Source of the DNA: Patescibacteria group bacterium
GTDB lineage: Bacteria; Patescibacteriota; Microgenomatia; UBA1400; PJMF01
Assembly: GCA_016861085.1 (NCBI GenBank)
Contig: BOKR01000001.1
Span: forward strand, 451,271-515,270
Direction: 5' to 3'
DNA length: 64,000 nucleotides
Part shown: positions 26,590-43,235 of the stretch, one piece after another
Position numbering within the stretch: the first letter of the stretch is position 1
Layout of the letters: each line of letters opens with the position of its first letter
Notes under the pieces: model-generated
What the model saw: the letters and a program-made list of their open reading frames with translations, nothing else
Told to the model about the DNA's origin: nothing
The model's database searches: none
Translations under genes and position numbers: made by a program

Positions 26590-28029
26590 TTACTCTCTGG
26601 GACGAGTCAAATCAATAATACTATAATCGCTCGTTTTTTCTATAATTGTGTATTTTTTTTCAAGTTCTTTTGCTTCCTCATCAAAGGAGGTTGTTACATA
26701 ATGAGTAGCACCCATTTTGATTTTTTCATCTATATAGTGGCCAATTGGCCAGCCAGTACGGTTTATTTGGAATAGATAAGCTGTGTCTCCTCCATATTGT
26801 GGTGCTATCACTTTTGCATCTTTTGGCAATACTTCATCAGCAGCTTTGCCCGCTTTGGAATATTCCGGGTGGTTAACATTGTAGTAGCCTTTAACCTGAT
26901 TATATGAAAATAGTAACATGGCAACTACTAAGAAAGCCGAGATACCCATAGAGACAAGTGCATTAAATTTTTTGTTAAGAAATGTATCTAGAACTAAAAT
27001 TGCGTGAGCCAGTGTCAATGAAATAACAGGAGTGGTTATAGCTTGATAGTAGTCATGTTGGACATTCCCGGTTGCTACCACTACAAAATAAAGCCCTATT
27101 CCAAACCACCATGCTGGAAGAAAAAACTTTTTGTTTTTTAGCTGTTGAAATAAGCTGATTGGAAGAAAAATAACACCTACATATCCAAGAATTAGTTTAG
27201 TGATTCTTTCATAGCCCAACCACCTAAACCAAGCTGGTCGCAAACGGATGCCGTTGCCATTAAAGAGCCAATCTGAAGCAGGAATTCCCTCTGGAAAATT
27301 CGTAATCCAATTTCTCCATAATAAAAAGGGAATGATGGCCAAGATTGCATATGCATACAATCTGAAATCAGTGATTATTTTTTTTAGTGTTCTCTCTTCA
27401 AAAAGCATGACAGCATATACAGGAAGCAGAAAAGCCACGAATGGTTTTAGAAGTAAAGCAGCAGCCAACGAAATGAGAGAAACCCAATACAAATATGGTT
27501 TTGGTTTTTTTACATAAAATCGAAACATTGTAATTGAAAGAGTTGAGAAGAACACCATAATTGGTTCTGGTAGGATTACTCGGGAGTAGAAAACTGAATA
27601 TGGTAGTACTGCAAAAAAGAATGCTGCAAAATAACCAGCCTTTTTCCCAAAGTAGCTTCGCGCCAAAAAAAACAAACAAAAGAGAGTTCCAATCGAGAAT
27701 AGTGAAGATACTACACGACTGGTAGGAACCAGAGGAAGTGAGGGAGCAGCTTTAAGTAAGGCAGCAGTTATGACATTGTAAAGTGGAAATTCAACCATTC
27801 TATATCCATTAGGGTTATCAAGTCCTGAAGGGATATTTGAAAGATCATGATATGTTGGGTACAAAGGATTCAGTGTTTTCTTAGTAAACTCTCTGGTTAC
27901 CGATGCTGTATCTGCTTGTCGCCAGCTGTGCCAATCTAGTAAATCTGTATTAACCTTATAGAGTCTCAAAATCAGTGCAATGGCTGCAATAATAAACAAT
28001 AACGGATATTTTTTGAGGATGCTTTTCAT
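26590..28029 (-). CDS. Polytopic membrane glycosyltransferase, GT-C fold (PMT_2/ArnT-like, GT39/83-type)
   Basis: 479 aa with at least 10 predicted TM helices. The first-loop motif LLDWHSWRQADTASVTREF is GT-C-like. Confidence 0.55.
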   Translation of the reverse strand: MKSILKKYPLLFIIAAIALILRLYKVNTDLLDWHSWRQADTASVTREFTKKTLNPLYPTYHDLSNIPSGLDNPNGYRMVEFPLYNVITAALLKAAPSLPLVPTSRVVSSLFSIGTLFCLFFLARSYFGKKAGYFAAFFFAVLPYSVFYSRVILPEPIMVFFSTLSITMFRFYVKKPKPYLYWVSLISLAAALLLKPFVAFLLPVYAVMLFEERTLKKIITDFRLYAYAILAIIPFLLWRNWITNFPEGIPASDWLFNGNGIRLRPAWFRWLGYERITKLILGYVGVIFLPISLFQQLKNKKFFLPAWWFGIGLYFVVVATGNVQHDYYQAITTPVISLTLAHAILVLDTFLNKKFNALVSMGISAFLVVAMLLFSYNQVKGYYNVNHPEYSKAGKAADEVLPKDAKVIAPQYGGDTAYLFQINRTGWPIGHYIDEKIKMGATHYVTTSFDEEAKELEKKYTIIEKTSDYSIIDLTRPRE

Positions 28030-29765
28030 GTGTTGCTGAATTTATTTTTATTTGTACGAATTCTTTTTTTTGGTTTAACTTTAATAGTTTTTTCAATTGG
28101 TTTTAATTTGGCATATGCTAGCAAAACACCGGTCATTGCCCAGTAAGTGTATGCAACTTTTGAGGCCGCAAAGACATCAATGAAAGCTGCGTTAATGAGC
28201 AACCCAATTGTTGCACCGATAAATCCAACCGCAAACAGTTTTTTAAACGAGTCAGTTTCAAGTCTATTCTTTATAATGTTTTTGCACGTTGCTAATGCTA
28301 TGAATACACAGCCATAAAACGAGAGAAAGCCCAGTAAACCAGTTTCTCCTAGAGTTCTTAAGAAATTATTATCAGTTGAGTCAGCTTCTGTAAATTCTTC
28401 CACAACTGATTTGGTAAGTGTCGCGTAGCCGGTGCCAAGAGCTGGATTTTTGTAAAAACCGTTTAAGGCTTGTGGCCATAAAGTATCTAATCGAATTGCC
28501 ATAGATAAGCCGTGTTTTAAAGCATTTTCTGAGTAGGTTCGTGGCACTTCTAATGTCACGAATGTTTTTTGGCCTGTTGCAGAAACAGTAGCAACTTGAA
28601 TTTTATCTGGGACATCAACATATACATCACTTGGTTTTATTGGTGATGGTCGGGTGTCTGACGCAACTAATACTTCGGCTTGTTCTGTAGACAATCCATT
28701 TTCTGGTTTCTTAACAGTTTCAGCAATGTATTCCTGGACTTTAAATTGACTCAAAATCATGTTTGAGGTGTTTTTAATTCCGGTCAACACAGTTGTGATC
28801 TCAGGGCGATTTTCAATAACTTGATATAAACGGTCAGCCATATTGCTGCCAAAAAACACGAATAGAATCACAAAAATCAATCCGCTCACAAAAGATTGTT
28901 GAAAAAAGAATTGAACTTTAGAAATAAGTCTCTCTTTGAGGAGACTTGCAATTAAAATAGTTAAAAATAATCCAAGTACTAACCCAGCTAATGAAGTGCG
29001 TGAAGCACTCAACATCATCATCAGAAGTCCTAAAATATAAGTTGTCCACAGAACCATTCTTGGAAACAAGTTAATTTTTTTCTGAAACAGCATTACTAAA
29101 ATAATTGGTAGAACAATAACTAAATATGCTGCCATGTCATAGTGGCCAGCAAAGGTTGATTGTACCCGAGCATGTTCGGTTAGGTATAGGACTATTCCTT
29201 TGCTAAACTCTCTGTTCATGGTTGAGTATACCGGCCAATAAAAGTATTTTTGTCCTAAACCGTATATCCCTACTGCTAGAAGCGTAAACACCACAGAGAC
29301 GAGAATGATTTGTACGTCTCTTTTTGATTTGATTGAAGCATATAGCAAAAAGAAGAGTGAAAAGTATTCAATATATCTGCCAAAGTGCAAGAAGCTTTTA
29401 AGCAAATGAACTTGTGTGGTTGGAATTGTCTGAGTAATAAATATTCCCGAAATGGTTGATAAAAAGCCAACAACTATATAGGCAAATATGATTTTAGTGA
29501 GTGGTGTATCAAGTGATATTTTTTTACGAAGTAACTGTACTCCATAAATTAAAATACAAAATGCAATTAAAAAATCCTCTAGGCGGACACGAACAATATA
29601 CCCTTCTATCAAATCAAAGAGAGGTAACTTTGGGTACAAAGGAATAAATATCAGTAGAAATGTGCTCAAAATAAGCAAGATATTATCATCAAAAAATTTC
29701 AGCCAGTTATGTGGTTTTGCCTTTTTTTCCATTTGAAACTGTATACAAGTATACCCTATTTCCAT
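28026..29765 (-). CDS. O-antigen ligase/polymerase-like membrane protein (Wzy_C family)
   Basis: 579 aa and polytopic. It contains IPLYPKLPLFDLIEGYIVRVRLEDFL and the loop ARVQSTFAGHYDMAAYLVIVLPI. It is a clear paralog of the N-terminal half of the ORF at 39870-43235. Confidence 0.6.
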   Translation of the reverse strand: MEIGYTCIQFQMEKKAKPHNWLKFFDDNILLILSTFLLIFIPLYPKLPLFDLIEGYIVRVRLEDFLIAFCILIYGVQLLRKKISLDTPLTKIIFAYIVVGFLSTISGIFITQTIPTTQVHLLKSFLHFGRYIEYFSLFFLLYASIKSKRDVQIILVSVVFTLLAVGIYGLGQKYFYWPVYSTMNREFSKGIVLYLTEHARVQSTFAGHYDMAAYLVIVLPIILVMLFQKKINLFPRMVLWTTYILGLLMMMLSASRTSLAGLVLGLFLTILIASLLKERLISKVQFFFQQSFVSGLIFVILFVFFGSNMADRLYQVIENRPEITTVLTGIKNTSNMILSQFKVQEYIAETVKKPENGLSTEQAEVLVASDTRPSPIKPSDVYVDVPDKIQVATVSATGQKTFVTLEVPRTYSENALKHGLSMAIRLDTLWPQALNGFYKNPALGTGYATLTKSVVEEFTEADSTDNNFLRTLGETGLLGFLSFYGCVFIALATCKNIIKNRLETDSFKKLFAVGFIGATIGLLINAAFIDVFAASKVAYTYWAMTGVLLAYAKLKPIEKTIKVKPKKRIRTNKNKFSNT

Positions 29766-29774
29766 TAATAATGC

Positions 29775-30728
29775 TTATGAAAGGTCAGTGAGTATCTTTC
29801 TATAAATGAGGGCTTTATTTTTGTTAGGTGCTATGACGCTAAAGACGAAAATTCTGATTAATGCTCCATATTGTAAAAGAATTTTTGCAAGAACTGCTTG
29901 CATAGATGATTTGTGTTTTGAAAAAATATATTGGAGTCCTCTGAATTCTCCCCTTAGTGCGTTTTCCTGGTTTGAACTGGCATTTTGCAAGTGAATTATG
30001 GAAGCGGTTGGATCAAGAGCAACTACAAAGTTATGATTTTTTGCCCTCATACAAATTTCGGTATCTTCGCCATACATAAAAATATTTTGGTCAAAAGGGC
30101 CAAAAGTATCTATAGCTTGTTTGGAAATCATCATAGCTGTCCCGCCAATCCAGTCAACAGGAATAAGATCTGTATAGTGTTCTAATTGTGACAGAGTAAG
30201 TCTGTTTGCTTTTCCTGTATGTTGTGTTGACGGCAGCAGTTTCCCTATCACAGGCAAATCATCAAGCATGCTCATATGAAAAAAGAGTGAAGTCAGAGTG
30301 GGAAATGAACCACCTTGAGGTTGGTATGTGAGGTCAATATTTAGTAAAACTGGAGTGAGAATACCAAGGTTCAGTTTTTCATCTGAAAGAAACCGCTGTA
30401 CCATACGTTCTAATGCATTTTCCTGAACAATTGTGTCTGAGTTTAAAAATAAATAGTATTTTCCACTTGCCTTTTTTATTCCAAGATTATTTGCATTACC
30501 AAAGCCAACGTTCTTTGTACTCTCAATAATAATAATTGGTACATCTGTCTCTTTTTTAAATTGTTTGAGGGCTTTGACCGAATCATCTTGAGAATCATTA
30601 TCGACAACAATAATTTCTAAATTATTTTTTAATAGTTGAGACGATTTTGTTGAGTTGACAACAGAGCGCACTGTTTCTAGTGTTAGATTCCTAGTGTTGT
30701 ACGAAACGATAATGACAGAAAGTAACAT
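29775..30728 (-). CDS. Glycosyltransferase, GT2 family
   Basis: 317 aa with LSVIIVSYNTRNLTLETVRSV...VVDNDSQDDS and YGEDTE. Confidence 0.8.
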   Translation of the reverse strand: MLLSVIIVSYNTRNLTLETVRSVVNSTKSSQLLKNNLEIIVVDNDSQDDSVKALKQFKKETDVPIIIIESTKNVGFGNANNLGIKKASGKYYLFLNSDTIVQENALERMVQRFLSDEKLNLGILTPVLLNIDLTYQPQGGSFPTLTSLFFHMSMLDDLPVIGKLLPSTQHTGKANRLTLSQLEHYTDLIPVDWIGGTAMMISKQAIDTFGPFDQNIFMYGEDTEICMRAKNHNFVVALDPTASIIHLQNASSNQENALRGEFRGLQYIFSKHKSSMQAVLAKILLQYGALIRIFVFSVIAPNKNKALIYRKILTDLS

Positions 30729-30734
30729 GATAGT

Positions 30735-31373
30735 TTACTGGAATAGGCGCGCGCGGCCTAATTTATACTGTGGGTTTTTATTTTTTCTCTCCCCGATTGG
30801 TTTAGCTGGAATACCAGCAACGATAGAAAATGGTTCAACGTTTTTGGTCACTACTGCTCCAGCTCCAACAATTGCTCCATCTCCGATTGTAACTCCTGGC
30901 AAAAGTATCGCTCGTGGGCCAATAAACACGTAATCGCCAATGGTTACTTTTTCTTCTATCGCTTTAAAATGGGGATCATGCACATCATGTTGACTGGTCC
31001 AAATCATAACTTCACTAGCTATATCTGTATGGTTGCCAATTTCAAGACCACCACTTGAGTTTGGTAATTGTTTACGGCCATCTAAGGTAGCTCTTTCACC
31101 CACGAGAGTATCTTCACCAATACTGATGTATCTGGGGTCATATATTCTAGCCATCATGTGAATGGTAGAACCAGTACCAATACGCATGCCAAATGCTCTG
31201 TAAAAAAATCTCCTTATGTGATGAGAGGGTACAATACCAATTCCCCACCAGAGAAAACCAGTAACTGCTTCTAAGTACCAAGCTGTTAAGCGACCAGCAA
31301 CTTTTTGCGAAAAGGTTCTGCCTTGAATTGGTTGCGCTTCATGTGAATTTTCTTGCATGAGCTTAGTATACAA
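30735..31373 (-). CDS. Hexapeptide-repeat (LbH) acetyltransferase, WcaF/NodL-like sugar O-acetyltransferase
   Basis: 212 aa. The C-terminus has the left-handed β-helix repeats IGDYVFIGPRAILLPGVTIGDGAIVGAGAVVTKNV. Confidence 0.75.
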   Translation of the reverse strand: MYTKLMQENSHEAQPIQGRTFSQKVAGRLTAWYLEAVTGFLWWGIGIVPSHHIRRFFYRAFGMRIGTGSTIHMMARIYDPRYISIGEDTLVGERATLDGRKQLPNSSGGLEIGNHTDIASEVMIWTSQHDVHDPHFKAIEEKVTIGDYVFIGPRAILLPGVTIGDGAIVGAGAVVTKNVEPFSIVAGIPAKPIGERKNKNPQYKLGRARLFQ

Positions 31374-31862
31374 CTAAAAGCTCAAGAGATCGAGAAGTCT
31401 TCCAAGTACCGTTTTATTTTCTTCGTTAGTTTCGATTTCAACGGGGATTACTAGGAGAAGACGCTCAATTTTAGTTGATTTTTTTGACGCAGCAGTTGTA
31501 GGAGTAACCTGCTGCATTTTTTCTGTGGCAGTTTTGGCGTCATCTACAGTCACTTTTTGTTCGACTTCTAATGTTTCGATTTCATTATCAATTTCAAACT
31601 CCATAGATTTGTCAAGTTCGGCAAAACTGGCATCAAGTTCTGCTTCTAAATCATCGAGTGAATCTTCCATTGTATCGTTTTTACCTAAGATACCTCCAGT
31701 TTTTGTAATTGCGTTTCCAAAGGCAAATCTATATGAAAACGTTATTGCAACAAGCACTGCAGCTACCAAGAAAAGTTTGTTTGATTGTTTCATAAAACTA
31801 TTTTGACACAGATTTTGTAGGCTGTACAAGCGGAACTGGGTTTTATTCAGTACATTTTTCAC
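31374..31862 (-). CDS. Hypothetical acidic membrane-anchored protein (the true start may be the internal Met)
   Basis: 162 aa with a TM at LFLVAAVLVAITF, then a D/E-rich and probably coiled segment. The annotated start overlaps the ruvB stop by 20 nt, so the internal MKQSN start is more likely. Confidence 0.4.
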   Translation of the reverse strand: MKNVLNKTQFRLYSLQNLCQNSFMKQSNKLFLVAAVLVAITFSYRFAFGNAITKTGGILGKNDTMEDSLDDLEAELDASFAELDKSMEFEIDNEIETLEVEQKVTVDDAKTATEKMQQVTPTTAASKKSTKIERLLLVIPVEIETNEENKTVLGRLLDLLSF

Positions 31863-32889
31863 CTAGATGCTCATAGGCGATTTTACTAACTACTCTACCT
31901 TTAGGAGTGCGTTGAATCATACCTACCTGGATTAAATATGGTTCGAGGACTTCTTCTATAGTAAGTTGATCTTCATTGAGGGTAGCAGCAATTGTTGATA
32001 ATCCAACTGGACCACCTTTATGTTTTTGGATGATCTGGCGCAAGAAACGGCGATCAGAATCATCTAGACCCAATGTGTCTATTGCAAACATGTCAAGGGC
32101 TTCGTGAACTGCTTTATTGGTGATCGTTTTGAGTTTATGAACTTGCACATAGTCACGAACGCGCTTAAGGAGTTTGAGGGCTATTCTGGGAGTACCTCGA
32201 GCACGTCTACCTATCTCAAGCGCAGACGATTCATCTATGGTTACACCGAGCTTTTCTGCCGCTGCACTAATAATAGTGGAGAGAGCTTGCGGAGTATAAA
32301 ATTGTAAGCGTTGAATGATGCCAAATCTATCACGAAATGGACCAGCTAGCAGGCCGAACCGAGTGGTGGCACCAACCAAAGTAAATTTTGGTAAATCGAG
32401 TCGAATGGTGCGTGCAGAGGGACCTTTGCCAATAACAATATCCAGGGCATAATCTTCCATAGCTGGGTACAATGTTTCTTCGATAACTTTTGGGAGTCGG
32501 TGAATTTCGTCAACAAATAAAATATCACTGGGCTCAAGATTTGTTAAGATGGCGGCAAGGTCGCCTGTTTTACTTAGTGCTGTGCCTGAGGTAATCTTGA
32601 TGTTTACCCCCAGCTCTTTAGCTATTAAATGTGACAATGTGGTTTTTCCTAAGCCTGGAGGACCATAGAGGAGCGTGTGGTCAAGGGCCTCACTTCTACC
32701 TTTAGCTGCAGTGATAGCAATTTGTAAGGATTTTTTTGTATCATCTTGACCAAAAAAAGCATCCCAGCTGTTGGCACGCAGTGAAGTAAGTAATTCTTCT
32801 TCTCCCGGGGTTGTGTCTAGTGGGTCAGTAGGACTGTTTATAGGAGGAGTCTTTTTTCGTGGTTGTACTAAGTTATCTTCAAAGTTCAT
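31843..32889 (-). CDS. ruvB: Holliday junction branch migration ATPase RuvB
   Basis: 348 aa with Walker A LYGPPGLGKTTL, Walker B ILFVDEIHRL and the sensor/arginine finger region TTRFGLLAGPFRDRFG. Confidence 0.95.
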   Translation of the reverse strand: MNFEDNLVQPRKKTPPINSPTDPLDTTPGEEELLTSLRANSWDAFFGQDDTKKSLQIAITAAKGRSEALDHTLLYGPPGLGKTTLSHLIAKELGVNIKITSGTALSKTGDLAAILTNLEPSDILFVDEIHRLPKVIEETLYPAMEDYALDIVIGKGPSARTIRLDLPKFTLVGATTRFGLLAGPFRDRFGIIQRLQFYTPQALSTIISAAAEKLGVTIDESSALEIGRRARGTPRIALKLLKRVRDYVQVHKLKTITNKAVHEALDMFAIDTLGLDDSDRRFLRQIIQKHKGGPVGLSTIAATLNEDQLTIEEVLEPYLIQVGMIQRTPKGRVVSKIAYEHLGEKCTE

Positions 32890-32898
32890 AGTTGTAGT

Positions 32899-33471
32899 CT
32901 ATTTGTGTTTACCTAGTTCTTTTATTGTCATCTGAATTGCTTTCTCTAGTGGTAGGTCAGTAATATCAATAGTTTTAAGTGCTTGTGAAATATGTGTTTC
33001 ATCAAAGCCCATGCTTAACAATGCTTCCAGGATATCGGATTGTAGCTGGCTAAGAGGGGTGAGATCAACATCTTTAATGCCGCCAAGTTTAGATTTGAGA
33101 TCAATAATAATTTTTTGACCAGCTTTCTTACCAACTCGTTTGACACTCGTAAAAAATGCAACATCAGCATTTTGAATGGCAGTAACAATTTGCCCAGAGC
33201 CTTTGTTAAGTATTGCAAGTGCCGTAGTTGGCCCTACCCCAGAAACGCTGATGAGGAGTTTAAACAGTTCTTTATCATTGAGGGTGCTAAAACCATACAG
33301 TTCAAGGGCATCTTCTTTCACATGGGTATATATATGAAGTGAAATTTCTTTTGTATTTGCAGCTTGCGAAAGAACTTGATTGGTGGCTTTAACTCCATAG
33401 CCGACGCCACCAGTCATGATGATGAGTTCATTTAATATAAGAAGTGGTGTTCCAGTTAGATATGCGATCAT
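32899..33471 (-). CDS. ruvA: Holliday junction DNA helicase RuvA
   Basis: 190 aa starting MIAYLTGTPL, the RuvA N-terminus, with the helix-hairpin-helix region LISVSGVGPTTALAIL. The ruvC-ruvA-ruvB order is canonical. Confidence 0.85.
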   Translation of the reverse strand: MIAYLTGTPLLILNELIIMTGGVGYGVKATNQVLSQAANTKEISLHIYTHVKEDALELYGFSTLNDKELFKLLISVSGVGPTTALAILNKGSGQIVTAIQNADVAFFTSVKRVGKKAGQKIIIDLKSKLGGIKDVDLTPLSQLQSDILEALLSMGFDETHISQALKTIDITDLPLEKAIQMTIKELGKHK

Positions 33472-33515
33472 GAATCTCAGTATAACATTTGGGTAAGTTT
33501 TGGGAAGAGAGATTC

Positions 33516-34046
33516 TTACACTAAGCTTACTGCACAGGTCATCGCAATCGCTACCGCGTCAAGTGCATCATCAATAAATGTGTTTACTGATCCATTTACT
33601 TGTAGTCTCACCATTTTTTCCACGGCTTCCTTATCTGCTCTTCCATTCCCAGTTACTGCTAATTTTATTTCAACAGGATCGTATTCTAGAACTTCTAATC
33701 CTGCATCTAAACAGGTTCCAATAATCACTCCACGCGCTTCACTGACTCGCATTGCAGTTTTCTTATTTTTAGCAAAATAAACTGTTTCAATCGCTAGTTG
33801 AGTTGGTTCAAAATGCGCAATAATTTCTTTTAAATCACTCTGAATTTTTTTAAATCTTACAAAAATAGTTTCGTTTTTGTCTGTCTGAATGCAGCCAAGA
33901 GCAACACACTCGAATTTGCCTGATGCAGTTTTTGTGCCACGCTTTCCAATTGCCCACCCCACCCTGTCATATCCAGGATCAATTCCTAAAATCACATTCG
34001 AGTTTGACCTGAGTATTTGGTTTCTATTCTTTTCCTGCATCTGCAC
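33516..34046 (-). CDS. ruvC: Crossover junction endodeoxyribonuclease RuvC
   Basis: 176 aa starting ILGIDPGYDRVGWAI, the RuvC catalytic N-terminus, and it is RNase-H-fold sized. Confidence 0.85.
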   Translation of the reverse strand: MQMQEKNRNQILRSNSNVILGIDPGYDRVGWAIGKRGTKTASGKFECVALGCIQTDKNETIFVRFKKIQSDLKEIIAHFEPTQLAIETVYFAKNKKTAMRVSEARGVIIGTCLDAGLEVLEYDPVEIKLAVTGNGRADKEAVEKMVRLQVNGSVNTFIDDALDAVAIAMTCAVSLV

Positions 34047-35238
34047 CTTTTTTATTTTGAAGTTCCTGGGCAGTGGTGATCAAAGTTGTTAAAATTGTTT
34101 CGGCAGACAGCTTCCAACTGAATTTTTTAATTTGTTCACGGGCTAATCGTCTAAAACTACGGCGTTCAACAGTACTCAGGTTTTGTGCCTTCCACATTTG
34201 ATCGGCAATTTCTTGTGGATTAGTAGGGTTTGCATATAACCCAGCTTCACCAACTACTTCTGGTAAACTGGTAGTATTAGAGACAATCGGCACAGTATTA
34301 AAATACAATGATTCTAGTGGTGGAATGCCAAAGCCCTCATATAAACCCACCAAACAGCTTGCAGTCGCGTGTTGGTACAGGATTTGTTTTTCAATATCAC
34401 TGATAAATCCTGTGGTAATGATTCTATTCTTTATGTTTGAATCAGCAATCCGCTTTACAATGGGTTCAGCAAGCCAACCAACTTTGCCAGCAATGACTAA
34501 CTTAGGTTTTTGATTAGTCCTGTTTGATTTGGCATTCTTTTTTTGCAGAGATCTGCCCGCATCCATTCTGTAATAAATTTCGAAAGCCTCAATTAGTCGT
34601 TCAAGATTTTTTCTAGGTTGCATGGTACCTACAAACAAAAAGTAGGGTTCAGTAATAGTATGCTTCCTAAAAAAAGTATTCACTTGACTTGGCTCATAGT
34701 GCAATTTTTGTATAGCGGCAGAAGGGTATGCTACTACTATGTCATCAGGATTTTTGCCATAGTGTGTAACTATTTCATCTTTGGTAAATTTACTAATGGC
34801 AATAACTTTTTTGGCATGTTTGACGCTGTACTGTGTCCATTTTGTTAACTTGATAGTGTCTGATTTTTTAAATTGTTCTGGATATGCCAGATATGCAGTA
34901 TCCATGACTGAGCTTATATACGGAATTGGGCAAAGTCTTGGTGCATAATGTCCTGGTGTATAAAACACATCATATTTTTTTTGATTTTTGTATAAGTGAA
35001 TTGGTAAAGCCCACTGTGTCCAGAATTTTTCTGGCTTTATGACCTTATAGTCCCAGCCTTTTCTTTCATCAGGCAGATCAGTAATTTTGGGAGAAGCGAG
35101 CAATACAGTCACAGTAATGTCTTCATTTCTTCTTACTAGCTGTTCAAGTTGCACTAAAATTTCAAATGCATAGACATTACTGCCAACTCTGTTGAGAACA
35201 TTTGCTTCGTTGCCGTCAATTGCTATGTGTAGTTTCAT
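34024..35238 (-). CDS. Glycosyltransferase, GT4 family
   Basis: 404 aa with the C-terminal motif YEGFGIPPLESLYFNTVPIV. The stop overlaps the ruvC start by 23 nt. Confidence 0.75.
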   Translation of the reverse strand: MKLHIAIDGNEANVLNRVGSNVYAFEILVQLEQLVRRNEDITVTVLLASPKITDLPDERKGWDYKVIKPEKFWTQWALPIHLYKNQKKYDVFYTPGHYAPRLCPIPYISSVMDTAYLAYPEQFKKSDTIKLTKWTQYSVKHAKKVIAISKFTKDEIVTHYGKNPDDIVVAYPSAAIQKLHYEPSQVNTFFRKHTITEPYFLFVGTMQPRKNLERLIEAFEIYYRMDAGRSLQKKNAKSNRTNQKPKLVIAGKVGWLAEPIVKRIADSNIKNRIITTGFISDIEKQILYQHATASCLVGLYEGFGIPPLESLYFNTVPIVSNTTSLPEVVGEAGLYANPTNPQEIADQMWKAQNLSTVERRSFRRLAREQIKKFSWKLSAETILTTLITTAQELQNKKGADAGKE

Positions 35239-36359
35239 TTAAAATCCTGAATTGCTTGTTTGTATACTGCTACAGTCTCACGCGCAGTTGTTTCCCAGTT
35301 AAACATTTGTTGTCGAATAATCATACGTTGCAAACGTTTTTTTTGTTCCTCAGTCGTTTCATTCAGAATTTTTTGTAAGCCAAGCGTGATGCTTTCTACA
35401 GATTCTGGATTCACAAACTCAGCAGCATTGCCAGCTACTTCAATCATGCCAGAATTATTTGAAGTTACAACCGGAGTGCCATGATGAAAACTTTCTAAAA
35501 TTGGTAGTCCAAAGCCTTCATATAATGAGGGAAAGGCAAACACCTCGGCATTGGCATATAAAACAGAAAGAGCTTTATCGGTAATTCTACCCAAAAATCT
35601 AGGTTGGTATTTATATTGTTTTGCAGCTAAATCTGATTCATCCCAGCCGCTCTCACCAGCTATCAGTAAATCATATTCGCTGGCAAGTGGTTGCCAAGCT
35701 TGAATGAGTCGAGTTAAATTTTTGCGGGGTTCACGAGTACCAACAAAGAAAATATATGGTCTATTTAAAACCAACTTTTCCTTAATCAACAACTCCTGCT
35801 CTTCTGTGACACTATCTGCAGCTTTCAGGAATTCTTCTGGAACTGCTTCATGAACAACATGAACCATATACGCTGGATATCCAAGTAACTTCACAATGTC
35901 AGTTTTTGTTGTTTGGCTGACAGCTATAATGTGGGATCTATGTTCTTTGAGCATCTTCCATGATCTCTCGTGAGCTTTTAGAATTGCTGGATGAGCAGTT
36001 TTTGGAAATTTAAGAATTGCTAGATCATGGATAGTAGATACAATTGGAATATTTTTGTCCGGGGGCTGCACCCAGTCCCAGCTATGAAACACATCTAAGT
36101 TGGGGATATAGCCTGAAACAGGCTTGAGTCCAAATTGCCATAATTTCTCAATTGCAGAAGTCGGCAGTCGTAAAAACTGGGTAGCAACTCCAGGAATTTT
36201 TTCAGCTTGTGTTTCTAAGACATCTTTTTGTCGAAGTGAATAGCCAAATAATGTTAATTGTATTTCCGGGAGTTGCGCTAAACTACGTGATAAATTTTGA
36301 GTATAGCGTGAGACCCCTCGACCATAAATAACTGATGTAAAGTCAATTCCAACATGCAT
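35235..36359 (-). CDS. Glycosyltransferase, GT4 family
   Basis: 374 aa with the C-terminal motif YEGFGLPILESFHHGTPVVTS. Confidence 0.75.
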   Translation of the reverse strand: MHVGIDFTSVIYGRGVSRYTQNLSRSLAQLPEIQLTLFGYSLRQKDVLETQAEKIPGVATQFLRLPTSAIEKLWQFGLKPVSGYIPNLDVFHSWDWVQPPDKNIPIVSTIHDLAILKFPKTAHPAILKAHERSWKMLKEHRSHIIAVSQTTKTDIVKLLGYPAYMVHVVHEAVPEEFLKAADSVTEEQELLIKEKLVLNRPYIFFVGTREPRKNLTRLIQAWQPLASEYDLLIAGESGWDESDLAAKQYKYQPRFLGRITDKALSVLYANAEVFAFPSLYEGFGLPILESFHHGTPVVTSNNSGMIEVAGNAAEFVNPESVESITLGLQKILNETTEEQKKRLQRMIIRQQMFNWETTARETVAVYKQAIQDFK

Positions 36360-36360
36360 A

Positions 36361-37860
36361 TTATTTCATTCCAATCACGTTTAGTGGTTGCATAAACACT
36401 CTAACAAAACCGATATTCGGATAGTCTAGCACACCTACTTGTCTAAATCCTAGCTCAAGAAGCACTGATTCAATTTTGTTATTTGGATCAGTAAGATCGC
36501 GCAAATAGTCAAAAACCAAAATAGTTTTATAGCTAGCTGCAACTTTAAGATCATTTGTAAGATTTGGAACGTTTTCAATGTACAACGTTTTTGTTGAGAA
36601 AGTTGGGAAAGTGTTGAGATTTTTTTTGGCCTGTTGCATCTCATACCACCGCATTGGTGCAAATTCTTCTGGGAACGAATAGACCAGCAATGTCTCACTT
36701 GGAACAAATTCACGGTGCATTTGAGTTACTAATTCTCGCCAATTTTCACGCTGTAAATTTGGAGTTGCGTAATATGCAGTTGTTCCCAGCAGATTAATAG
36801 TAAGAAAAGTGCTCACAAAGAATATTGCGACTTTTCTTGATTTAGAGTTCATAAGTATGTCAGCAATATGGGCAATTAGAATATAGATTCCCGGTAGTAA
36901 AAAGAGCAGTCGTTTTGGTTGAATTACAGGGACTACAAATGAGATTAACCACGCTGTAATAAGAGGAACGATAATCCAAAAAAATAGTAATTTGAAGTTA
37001 TATTTTTTGAGGTTTTTTAAAATATGTGGAACTATCAGCAGTAAGGCAGCTGTGAGAGCAACTGCTAAAACAATAACAAGAACAGATGCATCAAGTGGCA
37101 GAACTCCGAATAATAATTTTCCAAACACTAGCGGAATAGCTTTGAGTTGTATTACGCTGACTACTTGTTCCCATCCTGGTAGTTGTTTTCTTACTACTCC
37201 ACCCTCTGCAAGTTGTTGTAAGAAAATTGGTAGGAATGGAAAAAATGTAGCAATAGTTACACCAAAAGAAATAAAAAGTTTTTTAGTTTTTTTGATTTTT
37301 AGAGCTAAAAATGTATACGCAATTTGGGCAAGCAGAAAAAAAGGATACAAGTATGAGGCATACAAACCCAATGTATTAAAAATTGTCAAAAAGACAATGC
37401 TATCTTTCGAATTTTTTTGTTCTAAGGATTTAATAAAATAGTACATGCTCAATACTGCTAAAGCAGTTGGCAATGAATATGGTCGCAGTTCTTGTGAATA
37501 GAAAATATGAAACGAAGATGTTGCCAATAATAAGGTACTCAAAAAGGCAACTTGCTTAGAAAATAACGTAACAGCAATTTTATAGGTAAAAATAATGGTG
37601 ATAATTCCAGGGATAACAGCCCCAATAGTTCTTAAAAACCACTCGCTTCGTGAGAAATATTGGGCAAAGTGCAAAATAAAATGTAGCAATGGTGGTTGAA
37701 AATCAGAGATGATATCAAGTTGTTGGTTGAATGGTCGAATAATTTCGAGCGCTTGTGCAGCTTCATCTAGCCAAAATGATCCATTCAATAATGGTAGACG
37801 TAGTATGATTGTCAAGACGAGTATGCAGGCGAGTGGGTATTTCAATATCAGTTTTTTCAT
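36361..37860 (-). CDS. Polytopic membrane glycosyltransferase, GT-C fold (ArnT/PMT_2-like)
   Basis: 499 aa with at least 11 TM helices. The first-loop motif NGSFWLDEAAQALEI has the DE..A/Y catalytic pattern of GT39/GT83. Confidence 0.6.
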   Translation of the reverse strand: MKKLILKYPLACILVLTIILRLPLLNGSFWLDEAAQALEIIRPFNQQLDIISDFQPPLLHFILHFAQYFSRSEWFLRTIGAVIPGIITIIFTYKIAVTLFSKQVAFLSTLLLATSSFHIFYSQELRPYSLPTALAVLSMYYFIKSLEQKNSKDSIVFLTIFNTLGLYASYLYPFFLLAQIAYTFLALKIKKTKKLFISFGVTIATFFPFLPIFLQQLAEGGVVRKQLPGWEQVVSVIQLKAIPLVFGKLLFGVLPLDASVLVIVLAVALTAALLLIVPHILKNLKKYNFKLLFFWIIVPLITAWLISFVVPVIQPKRLLFLLPGIYILIAHIADILMNSKSRKVAIFFVSTFLTINLLGTTAYYATPNLQRENWRELVTQMHREFVPSETLLVYSFPEEFAPMRWYEMQQAKKNLNTFPTFSTKTLYIENVPNLTNDLKVAASYKTILVFDYLRDLTDPNNKIESVLLELGFRQVGVLDYPNIGFVRVFMQPLNVIGMK

Positions 37861-37891
37861 GCAATAATCCTAACTACATTGTACTCATAAA

Positions 37892-38920
37892 GTGAGGATT
37901 CTGAAAGCTATGTTTGAATTTTTACAGGGAAAAACAGTATTGGTAACGGGTGCAGCTGGATTTATTGGCTCAAACTTGGTTGCAAAATTAATTCCCTTAG
38001 GTGCCCACATAATCGGCGTTGATAACTTATTAACTGGAAGAATTGAAAATCTTGCAGGTTTTTTGGATGACGCCAGAATTTCTAGAGTTTCTAACTTTGA
38101 ATTTATTACTGCAGATGTTACTCAACCTGTTGCGTCGTACCTACCTGAAGGCAAAAAAATTGATGTTGTCTTGCATTTTGCTTCACCTGCTTCTCCACCC
38201 AGATATCAAAAATACCCAGTTGAAACCTATTTAGTTAATTCTCTTGCCACACATTATTTAGCAGAGTATTTACACAAAACTAACCCTGAGGGAAGGTTTG
38301 TGTTTGCGGGAACTTCAGAGGCATATGGTGATCCTCAGGTGCATCCACAGCCAGAAACGTATTGGGGTAATGTCAACCCAAATGGCAAGCGATCTTGCTA
38401 TGACGAATCAAAACGGTTAGGTGAAACTATTTGTGGAGTGTTCTATCGTGATTTTGGTTTAGATACTAGAATAGTGAGGATTTTTAATACCTATGGACCA
38501 AACATGGATCCAACTGATGGTAGAGTAATTCCAAATTTTGTGATGCAAGCACTCAAGGGAGGACCGCTTACAGTGTATGGTGATGGCAGTTACACCCGTT
38601 CGTATTGTTATATAGACGACTTAGTTGAGTACATTTTGCGAATGACCTGTAAAGAGGGGCTTGCTGGTGAGACTGTAAATATAGGTAATCCCCAAGAATT
38701 CACTATATTACAAACTGCTCAGCTGATACATGAAGCAATCAATCCTGGAGCTGAGTTCAAAGCAGACTTTAAACCACTGCCCTCTGATGACCCGACTAAA
38801 CGCAAACCAGACATTACCAAGGCCAAACAATTGTTGGGATTTGAACCACAAGTTCAATTTGCAGAAGGTTTACAAAAAACGATTGAGTATTTTAGGCCCA
38901 TTTATGCGGCGGTTTCTTAA
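37892..38920 (+). CDS. UDP-glucuronate decarboxylase / UDP-xylose synthase (SDR family)
   Basis: 342 aa with the Rossmann motif VLVTGAAGFIGSNL. The stretch SEAYGDPQVHPQPETYWGNVNPNGKRSCYDESKRLGE closely matches the conserved UXS block, and the YxxxK motif is present. Confidence 0.85.
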   Translation: MRILKAMFEFLQGKTVLVTGAAGFIGSNLVAKLIPLGAHIIGVDNLLTGRIENLAGFLDDARISRVSNFEFITADVTQPVASYLPEGKKIDVVLHFASPASPPRYQKYPVETYLVNSLATHYLAEYLHKTNPEGRFVFAGTSEAYGDPQVHPQPETYWGNVNPNGKRSCYDESKRLGETICGVFYRDFGLDTRIVRIFNTYGPNMDPTDGRVIPNFVMQALKGGPLTVYGDGSYTRSYCYIDDLVEYILRMTCKEGLAGETVNIGNPQEFTILQTAQLIHEAINPGAEFKADFKPLPSDDPTKRKPDITKAKQLLGFEPQVQFAEGLQKTIEYFRPIYAAVS

Positions 38921-39758
38921 CTTTTGATGGTCTTCGTAAATATTCTTCTATTGTTCTGACTAGGTCTGCTCTCATTTGAGCAGTAAATCCGGGGGTCGTT
39001 TTAAGGCGGCTGATTCTTGTTTTAATTTCTTCAACCGATCTTTTATCGTCTAAATCATCAAGTCTGTAAGAAATAGAAAACATAAGTGAATTTTCCCAGG
39101 TACGCTTTGCTTCTTGTTCAAAAATAATGGTGAAGAGTTCGATTAAGTCACTATCAGTTAACTGTGTTAGTTTAAACTCGTCAAAATGCCTCAGTCTATA
39201 GGCATAGTAGTTTCCAAGGATTGTTTCAATAGCATCTTTAGCTCTTTTTTGTTGATCAGGGGTAAATGTTTTTATTTGTTTGGCAATGAGGGTGATTTGT
39301 GCCTCACTATGTACAGAGAGTGCTCTTACTAGCTGGTCAGTTGTTTCTTTTCCTCGTTTTTCCCTTTCATTTCCCTCAGCATCATAGGCTTTTTCATTCC
39401 TAGCTCGCTCTAGAGCAACTATCTTTTGGCACAATGTTTCGTTATCAAAACCAATAAGTCCAAATGTTAGTAACTCTCTTTTTTTGTAGGCTTCATATTT
39501 TCTCTCCTCTGCTATTTTAGTTTTTTCTTCTTGCCTTTTTTTTCTTAAAAACTCTTGGCGATATTTACTCCATGCGTGGCGTTCATTTGCAGTTAATCTC
39601 TTTACTCCTAGAAGCCTAGCTATCTCAACAGGAGTCATGGAGTGGTAACTATCATCTTTGGCAACCTTTGCTATTTCGTAAAGCAATCGTTGGATAGTGG
39701 GCTGTGGTGTAGTTTTGTTTTCTTGTTCATGATTATTGGCTATAATTTTTTTTAGCAT
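38892..39758 (-). CDS. Hypothetical K/E/R-rich protein with a possible N-terminal HTH
   Basis: 288 aa. MTPVEIARLLGVKRLTANERHAW is helix-turn-helix-like, followed by charged, probably coiled-coil segments. Its 3' end overlaps the convergent UXS gene by 29 nt. Confidence 0.4.
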   Translation of the reverse strand: MLKKIIANNHEQENKTTPQPTIQRLLYEIAKVAKDDSYHSMTPVEIARLLGVKRLTANERHAWSKYRQEFLRKKRQEEKTKIAEERKYEAYKKRELLTFGLIGFDNETLCQKIVALERARNEKAYDAEGNEREKRGKETTDQLVRALSVHSEAQITLIAKQIKTFTPDQQKRAKDAIETILGNYYAYRLRHFDEFKLTQLTDSDLIELFTIIFEQEAKRTWENSLMFSISYRLDDLDDKRSVEEIKTRISRLKTTPGFTAQMRADLVRTIEEYLRRPSKVKKPPHKWA

Positions 39759-39810
39759 TCACCACTTTCTGTTTATTAATAAATTGAATTACTATAACAG
39801 TATCCAATTA

Positions 39811-39831
39811 GTTAAAAAAACCTTGTGGTTT
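39811..39831 (-). terminator. Weak candidate intrinsic terminator after the 1121-aa gene
   Basis: On the minus strand AAACC, loop acaa, GGTTT, then TTTTTT. The stem is short with only 2 GC pairs. Confidence 0.2.
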
Positions 39832-39869
39832 ATCACAAATTTCTTTATAATGATTTTTTTCAAACAAAA

Positions 39870-42800
39870 TTAGAAATTTTCTCCTTTAACGCGATACATG
39901 ACGTCAACAGAATTGTCAGTGTTGACTGTAAATTCAAAAAACGAATCATTTTTCCAGTCACGTACGAATGATGAGAGATAGTGCATATTTGTATCAGGAT
40001 CAGTTATATGCTTTGTTGAAAGCTCACCTTGTAGTTTTTCTGCGTCATTTGAATCAGAATGGTGACTGGTAATAATATATTTTTGCAGATTTGGATACTG
40101 TGAGAGTTTTCTTTCTAGTTCAAAAATAAAATTATTTGGTTGAGTGCGATCTTCCCAATTTAGATTATGAGAAATAATAAACAGGTTTTTAATTGTAGGT
40201 AGCTTTTCAATTTGGAGTAATGCGTTATACAAAAAAAGCTGTTGGGCTTGGGAAATTTGTGAGTCTTCATTTACATTAAGCAACACAAAAAATTCTGATT
40301 CTGTATAGAAATAGCTATCTTTGGCTTGATGAAATTTAGAATCATTCAGATCAATGTTGCCAATTGTGTATAAAATAGGTATTTTATTAAAAACTGTGTT
40401 GAAGATAGTATCTGATTTCAGGCTATTGTCATGATAAATATCACCAGTTATGACAGCAAAACTATTGCTAGCAGAAAGAGATGCTTTTAATACAGAAGCA
40501 AATTGCGCAGTAGAATATTCTTGCAGCAAGCCAGTATCAATTTGAGTTTTTGGTTCATATCTATTTGAGATTACTGCAAAAGAATATGATTGATCTAAGT
40601 TTTTCAGTGAGATTTTTTGTTTATTAACAATGGGTACTTCTGGAGATGATTTCTGCGCAATCGGAGAAACTTTGAACAAACTACAACTGTCATTGCAACC
40701 GATAGCTACATACATCAGATCAAAGTTGTTTTTAAGGTTTTGAAAGGCGGAGCTTAAGGTTTCGTTGGATTGTGTTTGAAAATCAGTTGCGTATAAGTTG
40801 GTGTCTATCACGAGTGAATTGTATTGGTCAATAAGGGGTCTTTCAGAGCTTATAACACCATAAACAGATATTGCTGTATCGAAATATGGTTGAGATTCTG
40901 ATAAAGGTAACGGGTTATAGTTGCCATTAGAAAAGAGATCTACATAATACGGGTTCATAGAAGTAATAACAAAATAGTCTTTTTCTCGATTAAGAAAAGA
41001 ATGAGTATCGATATGAACATTTGCTAGATTTAAAGCAGTGCGTTTGTCGGAAAGTACATCATTTCTAAATTGGTTAGTAAATGTAGTTTTAAAGTCTTGG
41101 TTTGCTAAAAATAACGTAACAATCAGTACTGCACAAATTTGAGTAAAATACGCTAGTTGATACCGAATGGTATGAATCAGAACCGTAAAAATGATGATGA
41201 GGATAGGAAGTAGGATAAAAAACAATACCATGTCTTGGGAAGAAAGAGGTTTATTACTGAATTCCAGTGCGGTTGCGATAAGTGTATATAAAAGCAATGA
41301 GCCGAAAATCAGTATTTGTTTTGCTGATGAAGTGTCAAATTTTTTGAGTAACATCTCAGTAGCTTTGTATATTCCAAATAAAATGATAATCCCTATCGCC
41401 ATGTTAAGAAAATAAAACATGGTAGGGGTATTATTGATCATGAGGAATGGCACTAACAGTATTGAGTATACGTCTACATTTTTTCTTAAAATCATACCGT
41501 TATTGCTACAAACGGTAAAAGAGCCAGTTTCTAGGAAACATTTTGCTGAGGTTAGGGATTCAATTTGCGGATCAGAAATAGATAGATCTCTGATAAGTGC
41601 ATACTCATGGAGTGGATTTTTATGTAAAAGGAAAAGTGCTAAGAAAATAGTGAAATACAACGGCCAGTGCTTGAGGAAATTCTTAACTACAAACTGAATT
41701 GAATGTAAAGTATTTGGTTTTACGGCCGCAATTGTAATACCAGCAAACGCCCAAAAAGTGTAGGCAACTTTTGAAGCAGCAAAGACATCTATATATGTCG
41801 CATTGATGAGTATCCCTAGAATTGAGCCAAGAAATCCAATTCTGAGAGCTTGAATGATTGGTGCAGTTTCTGTTTTTTGTTTGAAGATTTCTAAAGCAAT
41901 AATACAGATGAAACCGTAAAAAGTTAAAAATCCCAAAATCCCTGTCTCCCCTATTGTTCTCAAGAAGTTATTGTCAGTTGATTCAGCAGTGCTATATTCT
42001 CCTGGATTACTAATGCTCACAAGAGTGGCATAGCCATTTCCAAAGAGTGGATTGTTGATAAATCCCTTCAGCGCATTTGGCCAGAGTGTGTCAAGACGAA
42101 TTCCCATAGAGAGACCATATTTCAGCGCGTTTTGTGACCAAGTGCTTTTTTCTTCAATCCATTCCTTTCTTTCTGTTCCATCGTCATTTTGAATAGTTAT
42201 TTGTTTAAAGACTACTCCGTCTCCTACTAAGTCATCAGGGGTAGCATCAGGATTGGCCGGAATGTCAGAACCATTGAATGCTGTTTTGATTAGTGAAATA
42301 AATTTGTCACGAGTCGTTAGAGCAAAGAAATTGAGAAAAATGGTAAGAGCGATTGTAACCAAAACTACTGCTATACTTCCCCATTTGAGCTGTTGTTTAA
42401 TATTTCCTAATTTTTGTAAATGAAGCAACAACACAACGAATATTCCTACCACATACGCCAAAAGAGCCGTTTTTGAGCCACTTGTGACGAGCATCCAGGC
42501 ACCAAGAATATGTACTATATGTAGAAATATGCTCGTGTAGGTAGATTTTTGTTTTATAGTTTTTTGTAACCGTTTTAGATCAATCTGCAACGTGTTTAAT
42601 GCCAATGAAAAAATAATTGGTAGGACGATAACTAAGTATGCTGCTAGATCGTAGTGACCAGCAAAAGTGGATTGCGGTCTGGCTCCCTCTTGTAAATACA
42701 GTGTTGTTCCCTTTGAGTACTCACGATTCATGGTTGAGTATAATGGAAAATGCAAATATTCTTGACCAAAACCATACAAGACTACTCCAAGAATCGTAAA

Positions 42801-43235
42801 TGCTAATAATACCAAAACTATTTTGAGCTGTTTTTGAGTTTTAATACTTGAGTAAGTAAAAAAGAATAATGCGAAGTATTCTAGATAGCGAAAGAGATGA
42901 AGGCTACTTTTTCCAATGTGTAAGAGTTGTGCTGGAATGCTTTTAATTAGGAGTGTACCCAACAAAATTGAAATAAGCCCAGAAATTGTGTATAAAACAA
43001 CCATCCAGAAATAGGTTGACTTAACTTTAAATCGTTTTTTGTAGGCATCTTTAAGCCAAATTAGAGCGGTAATAAAAATGAGGATATCTTCAGGTCTGGC
43101 CCTAACGATATATCCAGGAAGCACATCAAAGATTGGGATTTTGGGAAACAATGGTATAAATACTATAAGAAAAGCACTGAATACGAAAAGTCCATGAATA
43201 TCTAACCAGGCTAAGATGTGTTTAAGTTTGTTCAT
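39870..43235 (-). CDS. Fusion protein: N-terminal O-antigen-ligase/Wzy-like polytopic domain plus a roughly 600-aa C-terminal extracytoplasmic domain of unknown function
   Basis: 1121 aa. The N-terminal half is paralogous to the ORF at 28026-29765, sharing MNREYSKGTTLYLQEGARPQSTFAGHYDLAAYLVIVLPI and STDNNFLRTIGETGILGFLTFYG. It has further TMs in the middle and a large soluble C-terminal region without recognisable motifs. Confidence 0.6.
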   Translation of the reverse strand: MNKLKHILAWLDIHGLFVFSAFLIVFIPLFPKIPIFDVLPGYIVRARPEDILIFITALIWLKDAYKKRFKVKSTYFWMVVLYTISGLISILLGTLLIKSIPAQLLHIGKSSLHLFRYLEYFALFFFTYSSIKTQKQLKIVLVLLAFTILGVVLYGFGQEYLHFPLYSTMNREYSKGTTLYLQEGARPQSTFAGHYDLAAYLVIVLPIIFSLALNTLQIDLKRLQKTIKQKSTYTSIFLHIVHILGAWMLVTSGSKTALLAYVVGIFVVLLLHLQKLGNIKQQLKWGSIAVVLVTIALTIFLNFFALTTRDKFISLIKTAFNGSDIPANPDATPDDLVGDGVVFKQITIQNDDGTERKEWIEEKSTWSQNALKYGLSMGIRLDTLWPNALKGFINNPLFGNGYATLVSISNPGEYSTAESTDNNFLRTIGETGILGFLTFYGFICIIALEIFKQKTETAPIIQALRIGFLGSILGILINATYIDVFAASKVAYTFWAFAGITIAAVKPNTLHSIQFVVKNFLKHWPLYFTIFLALFLLHKNPLHEYALIRDLSISDPQIESLTSAKCFLETGSFTVCSNNGMILRKNVDVYSILLVPFLMINNTPTMFYFLNMAIGIIILFGIYKATEMLLKKFDTSSAKQILIFGSLLLYTLIATALEFSNKPLSSQDMVLFFILLPILIIIFTVLIHTIRYQLAYFTQICAVLIVTLFLANQDFKTTFTNQFRNDVLSDKRTALNLANVHIDTHSFLNREKDYFVITSMNPYYVDLFSNGNYNPLPLSESQPYFDTAISVYGVISSERPLIDQYNSLVIDTNLYATDFQTQSNETLSSAFQNLKNNFDLMYVAIGCNDSCSLFKVSPIAQKSSPEVPIVNKQKISLKNLDQSYSFAVISNRYEPKTQIDTGLLQEYSTAQFASVLKASLSASNSFAVITGDIYHDNSLKSDTIFNTVFNKIPILYTIGNIDLNDSKFHQAKDSYFYTESEFFVLLNVNEDSQISQAQQLFLYNALLQIEKLPTIKNLFIISHNLNWEDRTQPNNFIFELERKLSQYPNLQKYIITSHHSDSNDAEKLQGELSTKHITDPDTNMHYLSSFVRDWKNDSFFEFTVNTDNSVDVMYRVKGENF

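Follow-up and report, generated by a model that had tools for sequence, protein, structure and literature searches.

Enzymes of the Wzy_C family, such as O-antigen ligase (WaaL), Wzy polymerase and PglL, act at the outer face of the cytoplasmic membrane, where they transfer a polyprenyl-diphosphate-linked glycan to an acceptor. In WaaL of Escherichia coli the residue H338 is the catalytically critical histidine, and an essential histidine reportedly exists in PglL as well. We know of no characterised member of the family whose C-terminus consists of a pseudo-glycosyltransferase module of the GT-C type followed by a phosphoesterase-fold domain, and no literature on such a member was found. A protein of this kind is described here from Patescibacteria (the candidate phyla radiation), a group with genomes of about 1 Mb whose envelope building is little understood and which, to our knowledge, is described as having neither an outer membrane nor lipopolysaccharide (LPS). 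The DNA analysed, hereafter the window, is a stretch of 64,000 nucleotides from a Patescibacteria group bacterium (Microgenomatia; assembly GCA_016861085.1, contig BOKR01000001.1, positions 451,271 to 515,270) with a G+C content of about 35%; scans of it for tRNAs and Rfam families gave no matches. It encodes two Wzy_C-like proteins, the stand-alone open reading frame (ORF) A of 579 amino acids (aa) and the 1121-aa ORF B, in which a Wzy_C-like domain is fused to a long C-terminal tail. The reading that we prefer, about as likely as not to be right, is that B is a Wzy_C-type glycan transferase of the outer face of the cytoplasmic membrane and that its tail is an outward-facing, mostly non-catalytic module for binding or docking.

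A preliminary description, made from the letters of the window, had placed both ORFs on what proves to be the minus strand and had called them diverged paralogs of the Wzy_C superfamily. The ORFs are found at those coordinates and with those lengths, and the near-identical blocks by which they were recognised are present as QSTFAGHYDMAAYLVIVLPI and STDNNFLRTLGETGLLGFLSFYG in A and as QSTFAGHYDLAAYLVIVLPI and STDNNFLRTIGETGILGFLTFYG in B. The pairwise alignment that had been proposed as a check joins residues 22-553 of A to residues 8-506 of B with 225 identities in 551 positions (41%, E 1e-118, BLASTP), a similarity far beyond chance, and paralogy is thereby confirmed. Family membership likewise stands for both proteins: B passes the Pfam Wzy_C model over residues 243-439 (49.5 bits, E 5e-13, gathering cut-off 31.7), and A, which stays under the same cut-off (24.6 bits, E 2.4e-5) and has a weak match to the IctB family of NCBIfam, is 41% identical to B over the 551 aligned positions. 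The model is also matched by 31 of 43 fused relatives of B. The additional transmembrane (TM) segments noticed in B are there too, as hydrophobic stretches past residue 506 that give way to a non-hydrophobic tail of about 410 aa.

The fused gene is genuine. A 1121-aa GenBank entry, 'hypothetical protein BroJett025_04700 [Patescibacteria group bacterium]', located on a 1.17-Mb contig, is 100% identical to B, and the genes that neighbour it are all annotated as BroJett025 'hypothetical proteins'. An identical protein also occurs in independent Logan assemblies and at least 120 full-length relatives exist, so that an origin of B as an assembly or frameshift artefact could be ruled out.

The N-terminal half of B resembles known Wzy_C enzymes in its architecture. 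Besides a Pfam match above the cut-off, it shares with WaaL, Wzy, PglL and PilO (PF04932) a multi-pass membrane domain whose last helices are preceded by a large outer loop, and the window supplies a similar context of a Bac_transf enzyme, glycosyltransferases (GT) of the GT2 and GT4 types and a Wzx-like flippase. A crude hydropathy profile counts about 12 hydrophobic segments within residues 1-506 and places the large loop at 305-431 in B and at 308-475 in A, and the distribution of lysine and arginine (K/R) fits this arrangement. Across 36 fused proteins, the set used for all column counts below, H194, D196, R380, D382, D421, N422, R426, E430, D483 and K489 are invariant in this domain. The loop motif of B reads D421-N422-x9-G432-xx-G435. 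The stretch of E. coli WaaL around position 338 (HNEIIEAGSLKGLMG) holds the motif H338-N-x9-G-xx-G with identical spacing, but the place of its catalytic histidine is taken in B by an aspartate that is found in 36/36 fused proteins. Because A and all fused relatives have the same invariant motifs in this domain, catalysis in B is, on the preferred reading, best placed in residues 1-506.

Beyond this domain, the preliminary description saw one domain of roughly 600 aa that matched no recognised family. A single novel domain of that size is ruled out by profile and structure matches, and the tail resolves instead into a copy, in two stretches, of the family of a neighbouring protein and a metallophosphoesterase-fold domain. 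The neighbour, here called G542, is a 542-aa multi-pass membrane protein encoded in full length in the window. In a search (hmmsearch) with a profile of the G542 family built from 61 proteins, B 519-652 corresponds to profile positions 3-129 (66 bits, E 1.2e-22) and B 665-858 to positions 337-534 (105 bits, E 2.6e-34), and positions 130-336 are missing from B. Direct comparison of B with G542 by BLASTP recovers much the same segments (B 528-631, E 0.001; B 667-857, E 7e-9). The two-part match recurs in 36/36 fused proteins, with a gap that begins at about position 115-240 of the profile and ends at about 330-400, and the C-terminal stretch is confidently modelled by AlphaFold. Judged by these matches, the middle of B is derived from the family of G542 through an internal deletion.

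Through G542, this part of B can be tentatively related to GT-C enzymes of the PMT_2/YfhO/ArnT type; by homology, its two stretches correspond to the first third and the last third of the G542 family. Both cysteine pairs and several structural residues are common to that family and the fused copies. The fused copies differ from it by the deletion, in 36/36 cases, of about 200 profile positions from the TM core and by the loss of the family invariants D45 (in the loop motif PFPD), E152, K190 and R348; the position of the PFPD aspartate is Q, N or H, never D. The middle module of B presumably no longer performs GT-C chemistry.

The remainder of the tail has a recognisable fold, which was obtained in the way the preliminary description had suggested, by AlphaFold and Foldseek. 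A model of B 716-1121 supplied with a 43-sequence alignment reached a mean local confidence (pLDDT) of 92.6 and a global score (pTM) of 0.91, as against a pLDDT of 38 for a single-sequence run of residues 711-1121. Its best PDB neighbours are the purple acid phosphatases 1qfc and 3zk4 (E ~1.5e-5, probability 1.0), followed by Mre11, YmdB, SbcD and PP1/PP2A, so that the top matches are all metallophosphoesterases. Each of the five motif positions coincides in the model with the C-terminal end of a beta strand. When a profile of the domain is compared with Thermotoga maritima Mre11, GD and GN(x)D fall in register with motifs II and III, and Pfam Metallophos matches 12 of 43 family members (best E 1.2e-6). 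For B itself, Pfam gave no match of any kind at E<=10 for residues 511-1121, Metallophos included, NCBIfam gave none for the tail, and a phmmer search of the tail against PDB sequences gave none either. A Wzz-like domain, which had been named as a trivial outcome, is ruled out for both tail parts by the absence of a Pfam match, by an alpha/beta model that has no long helical hairpin and by the phosphoesterase neighbours.

In canonical metallophosphoesterases, the histidine of the GNH motif serves as a general acid and stabilises the transition state. Compared with PF00149 enzymes such as purple acid phosphatases and Mre11/SbcD, with which it shares the fold and the register of GD and GN(x)D, the domain of B is degenerate in motif I, in the GNH histidine and in motif V, and it is fused to a membrane glycan transferase in a location that appears to be extracytoplasmic. 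Its motifs read S890-N-R-Y893, G931-D932, G959-N960-I-D962, H1023 and S1057-H-H1059. The complete two-metal set (DxH, GD, GNH[DE], H, GHxH) was not found among the 36 fused proteins. Motif I (DxH) has become S-[N/H/Q]-R-[F/Y], the position of its aspartate being N in 14 proteins, H in 11 and Q in 5, never D; Y, F, I or L stands in place of the GNH histidine (n=36); and motif V is variable, with D, N or Q in place of its first histidine in 26/36. Retained are D932 (31/36), N960 (33/36), R892 (24/36) and the motif IV histidine H1023 (20/36), and D962 is strongly conserved. The domain seems to keep only part of one metal site and would no longer carry out phosphoesterase chemistry. As neither part of the tail retains the catalytic residues of its parent family, we infer that the tail is mostly non-catalytic. 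An analogy may be drawn by description with Vps29, a cytosolic subunit of the eukaryotic retromer from an unrelated lineage, which has a metallophosphoesterase fold with substituted metal ligands and a scaffolding or binding role.

The orientation of the tail can be approached from several sides. In the model fitted to hydropathy and K/R distribution, the Wzy_C domain has 12 TM helices with both ends in the cytoplasm and is followed by five more helices, and residues 711-1121 would on that account lie outside the cell. The end of A is rich in K/R and presumably cytoplasmic, which fits the positive-inside pattern. Both C566/C576 and C847/C851 are present as cysteine pairs in 36/36 fused proteins, and where relatives of the phosphoesterase-fold domain stand alone, they carry a signal peptide and, at the C-terminus, a TM anchor. 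From hydropathy, the positive-inside pattern, the two cysteine pairs and these signal peptides together, we infer that the tail faces outside. The word 'extracytoplasmic', as first applied to the tail, is consistent with this orientation; a single unknown domain of roughly 600 aa is not borne out, as the stretch comprises five TM helices, a copied periplasmic domain and the phosphoesterase-fold domain.

Fused relatives of B are numerous. An exhaustive HMMER search with the tail returned 215 proteins, among them about 35 full-length fusions and about 110 stand-alone G542-like proteins; together with the stand-alone phosphoesterase-fold relatives, the latter provide the independent homologs of the tail that the preliminary description had proposed to look for. 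A profile search gave 1266 matches, the best 120 of which are all full-length fusions of 980-1270 aa. At least 120 distinct fused relatives, counted as cluster representatives, thus keep the tail at full length down to about 30% identity. A word-indexed homology search with the tail found 1 match, a fragment of a frameshifted ortholog, and 4 with the phosphoesterase-domain profile. When 185,579 species genomes were scanned with the full-length alignment, 355 relatives emerged; the 78 loci listed come nearly all from metagenome-assembled genomes (MAGs) of Patescibacteria (Pacebacteria, Woesebacteria, Roizmanbacteria, Falkowbacteria). A full-length fusion occurs in 26 of the 78 loci kept, all 26 in Patescibacteria MAGs. 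Since 24 of 25 fused proteins share one clade in a neighbour-joining tree of Wzy_C domains, the fusion is old and of essentially single origin; it seems to have arisen once.

Two observations concern the records themselves. Many GenBank MAG records with this cluster are titled 'uncultured Pseudomonadales bacterium' and one 'Methylococcaceae', with identities of up to 71% to the window protein; these organism labels look wrong. Among the loci listed, a few bear still other labels. The closest metagenomic ortholog found at first (JGI 3300076801, positions 2863-6276) covers residues 1-1121 in full, but several frameshifts split it so that at least five genes are called. The genes around it are broken up as well, and the frameshifts are likely to be sequencing errors rather than signs of a pseudogene. 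The family as such is already present in databases, under automatic names as disparate as 'O-antigen ligase family', 'metallophosphoesterase', 'YfhO family' and 'hypothetical'; one fused relative is a 'YfhO family protein' in NCBI naming. A literature search on the architecture (O-antigen ligase/Wzy_C, Patescibacteria/CPR, metallophosphoesterase, CotH) found no relevant paper, and what appears to be new here is the accessory module together with the Asp-for-His motif on a Wzy_C enzyme.

If the tail is indeed an outward-facing module for binding or docking, it would be built of two degenerate parts, namely five TM helices with a small periplasmic domain (the pseudo-GT-C part) and then the pseudo-phosphoesterase. 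Such a module might bind the acceptor, a glycan or a phosphate-bearing group, or might dock B to the full-length G542 encoded nearby. The role of B could thereby have been split from that of A within one conserved pathway, for instance into ligation and polymerisation. The functional idea of the preliminary description, in which the fusion couples ligation or polymerisation to an acceptor or to chain-length control, is a speculative possibility. The pathway would run from initiation by the Bac_transf enzyme through elongation by GT2 and GT4 enzymes and flipping to transfer at the outer face, for which A and B would be responsible, while GT-C enzymes would add decorations.

Several points weigh against this reading. 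The topology comes from a crude hydropathy analysis. In the N-domain, the histidine of the WaaL-type motif H[NSQ]x9Gxx[GTY] was not found at its position in any of the 36 fused proteins, and a profile of 27 fused proteins had no Wzy_C-type match at E<=10 among all PDB sequences. With aspartate in place of histidine and no solved WaaL, PglL or Wzy detectable, the chemistry of this domain could differ from that of known members. The parentage of the middle module is a further point, since the assignment of the G542 family as a GT-C-type glycosyltransferase, which is probable, draws on weak matches: Pfam PMT_2 matches 3 of 61 family members (best E 3.6e-7), G542 weakly resembles the putative glycosyltransferase LA_3751/LA_3752 of NCBIfam, and an hhalign comparison with the family of the second PMT_2 protein of the window (PMT_2b) gives a weak probability of 43%. 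Finally, the metal-2 positions in B, D932, N960, H1023 and H1058, read D, N, H, H and are apparently intact, so residual catalysis or phosphate binding is possible in B, including at a mononuclear site.

The last point leads to an alternative that we consider rather unlikely, in which the phosphoesterase-fold domain is a working if atypical enzyme, possibly with a single metal, that is coupled to the Wzy_C reaction. It might hydrolyse the released polyprenyl diphosphate and so recycle the carrier lipid, or cleave or transfer a phosphodiester-linked glycan in the manner of LytR-CpsA-Psr (LCP) proteins. The metal-2 set of B and the retention of D932, N960 and D962, and to a lesser degree of H1023 and R892, fit such an enzyme, whereas the missing motif I aspartate (0/36), the hydrophobic or aromatic residues at the GNH histidine, the altered motif V and the failure of B to match Metallophos speak for lost activity. 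Its stand-alone relatives are more conventional. The proteins designated P0151 and P0101, the former related to the domain profile at E 2e-17, keep the canonical GNHD and pass Pfam Metallophos (25-29 bits, cut-off 21.5), with a signal peptide and TM anchor. The gene context of P0101 is uninformative. P0151-type genes lie in an operon with the order CotH - Wzy_C - CotH-like - metallophosphoesterase-like - epimerase - AsnB, for example in locus L081 (1489-11284); the order from CotH through epimerase is seen in five loci, 3 of which extend to AsnB (asparagine synthase), and the Wzy_C protein there has the canonical HN-x9-G motif. The lineage lies outside Patescibacteria, and neighbouring CHU_C and DUF6089 genes make it probable that it belongs to Bacteroidota. 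We found no description of this operon in the literature. Its gene order connects the phosphoesterase lineage with a Wzy_C protein for a second time, independently of the fusion. The five loci are close relatives (59-76% identity), however, and hence amount to one evolutionary observation. It is conceivable, if unlikely, that an atypical extracytoplasmic phosphoesterase lineage is a dedicated partner of Wzy_C transferases and defines an undescribed glycan step at the outer face. If this were true, the step might be on-site processing of the polyprenyl-diphosphate product or phosphate-linked attachment of glycan to the wall, and the Asp-for-His variant of Wzy_C would use a chemistry other than that of WaaL.

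It is also conceivable, if unlikely, that B, and perhaps A, is a protein O-oligosaccharyltransferase of the PglL/PilO type whose tail recognises a protein acceptor such as a pilin or an S-layer protein. PglL and PilO are established members of the Wzy_C family, a lipid A-core acceptor is improbable in a group described as lacking LPS, and several PMT_2-type GT-C genes, from a family that includes protein O-mannosyltransferases, are conserved in the cluster. This proposal is weakened by the profile search of PDB sequences, which gave no PglL- or PilO-specific similarity, and by the aspartate that stands in B where WaaL, and reportedly PglL, has its essential histidine; moreover, no pilin or S-layer acceptor gene was identified beside B, and the tail is unlike known protein-binding modules. 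That the tail is a functionless leftover of a tolerated fusion would account for the loss of catalytic residues of both parent families and for the roughly 200 deleted positions of the GT-C-like core. The persistence of the full-length tail in at least 120 cluster representatives argues strongly against it, as do the invariance of its four cysteines, the conservation of its GD, GN, P and W positions, the compact and very confident AlphaFold model and the rarity with which genomes of about 1 Mb retain 1.8 kb of useless coding sequence; we regard decay without function as very improbable.

The features of the window on which this account draws are collected in the table below.

Table. Features of the window discussed in the text (positions in the window; fused loci, loci with the full-length fusion; A-type loci, loci with an A-like gene).
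Feature	Position	Strand	Evidence and remarks
Bac_transf phosphoglycosyl transferase	19897..20517	-	Pfam Bac_transf E 2e-60; 28/53 A-type loci
PMT_2a, PMT_2 (GT-C) glycosyltransferase	26590..28029	-	Pfam PMT_2 E 3.7e-13; start overlaps end of ORF A by 4 nt
ORF A, stand-alone Wzy_C-like paralog, 579 aa	28026..29765	-	BLASTP against B, Pfam, hydropathy
PMT_2b, second PMT_2 (GT-C) glycosyltransferase	36361..37860	-	Pfam PMT_2 E 1.5e-9; 20/26 fused loci
NAD-dependent sugar epimerase/dehydratase, strand opposite B	37892..38920	+	Pfam Epimerase E 3.8e-51; 19/26 fused loci
ORF B, fused Wzy_C-like protein, 1121 aa	39870..43235	-	Identical to GenBank BroJett025_04700
B ~875-1121, degenerate metallophosphoesterase-fold domain	39873..40613	-	AlphaFold, Foldseek, profile against Mre11, column counts
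B 665-858, copy of C-terminal G542 part: last TM helices and alpha/beta periplasmic domain with C847-x3-C851	40662..41243	-	G542 profile
B 519-652, copy of N-terminal G542 part: first TM helix, outer loop with C566/C576, next TM helices	41280..41681	-	G542 profile
B 1-506, Wzy_C-like domain, ~12 TM helices, outer loop 305-431	41718..43235	-	Pfam, hydropathy, column counts
G542, 542-aa multi-pass membrane protein, full length	47296..48924	-	BLASTP and profile homology to middle of B
GT4 glycosyltransferase, 512 aa, upstream of G542 and B	48924..50462	-	Pfam Glycos_transf_1; 11/26 fused loci
Wzx/MurJ-type flippase candidate	61226..62779	+	Pfam Polysacc_synt E 1.8e-16

A and B belong to a gene cluster whose order is conserved. 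It begins with GT4, G542, B, the epimerase gene on the opposite strand, PMT_2, two further GT4 genes and RuvC/A/B, continues after these with a hexapeptide transferase, GT2, A, PMT_2, GT4 and GT2, and further on, beyond the A region, includes a nucleoside triphosphate (NTP)-transferase, Bac_transf and DUF4012. The Bac_transf enzyme is likely to be the initiating enzyme of a lipid-linked glycan pathway. A PMT_2a-like gene directly follows the A-like gene in 38 of 44 related loci, and a G542-like gene directly adjoins the fused gene in 6 of 11, so that each Wzy_C paralog is paired with a GT-C-type partner. The ruvB, ruvA and ruvC genes lie inside this cluster (31843-34046, minus strand) and occupy the same place in 17/26 fused loci and, among 53 A-type loci, in about 35-38, so that DNA-repair genes have stayed among envelope genes with unusual stability across Patescibacteria.

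Other neighbours of B are less widely conserved. Between G542 and B are three minus-strand genes with no Pfam match (43521-44972, 44965-45600 and 45597-47306), of which two encode multi-pass membrane proteins (483 and 569 aa) and one a 211-aa protein with a single TM segment. The 569-aa protein recurs in 8/26 fused loci and the other two in the closest relatives only; these genes may encode further candidate GT-C-like enzymes. Directly downstream of B, a 288-aa highly charged protein rich in lysine and glutamate (38892-39758, minus strand) has no family match; it occurs in no more than 3 related loci and is apparently an insertion particular to this lineage.

Elsewhere in the window, a second glycan module occupies 52021-55627 (plus strand) and 55633-63462. 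It comprises a 700-aa protein with no Pfam match, an ABC-2 (Wzm/Wzt-like) transporter pair, a HisF/HisH-like pair, a Capsule_synth-like protein, a CBS-epimerase, the Wzx-like flippase and a CMP-sugar cytidylyltransferase, and its composition suggests that ABC-dependent and Wzx-dependent export routes are encoded side by side. On the other flank, a minus-strand ORF of 2374 aa (9540-16664) contains many Kelch repeats, fn3 domains and a purple-acid-phosphatase N-terminal domain, and is followed downstream by a small ORF and then by a MacB/FtsX-type ABC pair (5874-9151, minus strand). The encoded protein is apparently secreted or displayed on the surface and served by an exporter of its own.

For the biology of these organisms, the findings point to a conserved block that exceeds 30 kb, encloses ruvABC and is devoted to glycan assembly in this genome. 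Their interest for the study of envelopes in the candidate phyla radiation is moderate, and they do not overturn existing ideas. For annotation, the gain is one three-module description for a family that has been inconsistently named, and this description and the Asp-for-His motif both offer concrete targets for mutagenesis and assays. In the tail, two enzyme folds have clearly been put to new use as modules that seem to be non-catalytic. Each of the two ancient Wzy_C paralogs has a GT-C-type protein at its side, one pair being encoded by adjacent genes and the other fused, and in the sense of a 'Rosetta stone' the fusion suggests that Wzy_C-type and GT-C-type enzymes cooperate on the outer face of the membrane in Patescibacteria.

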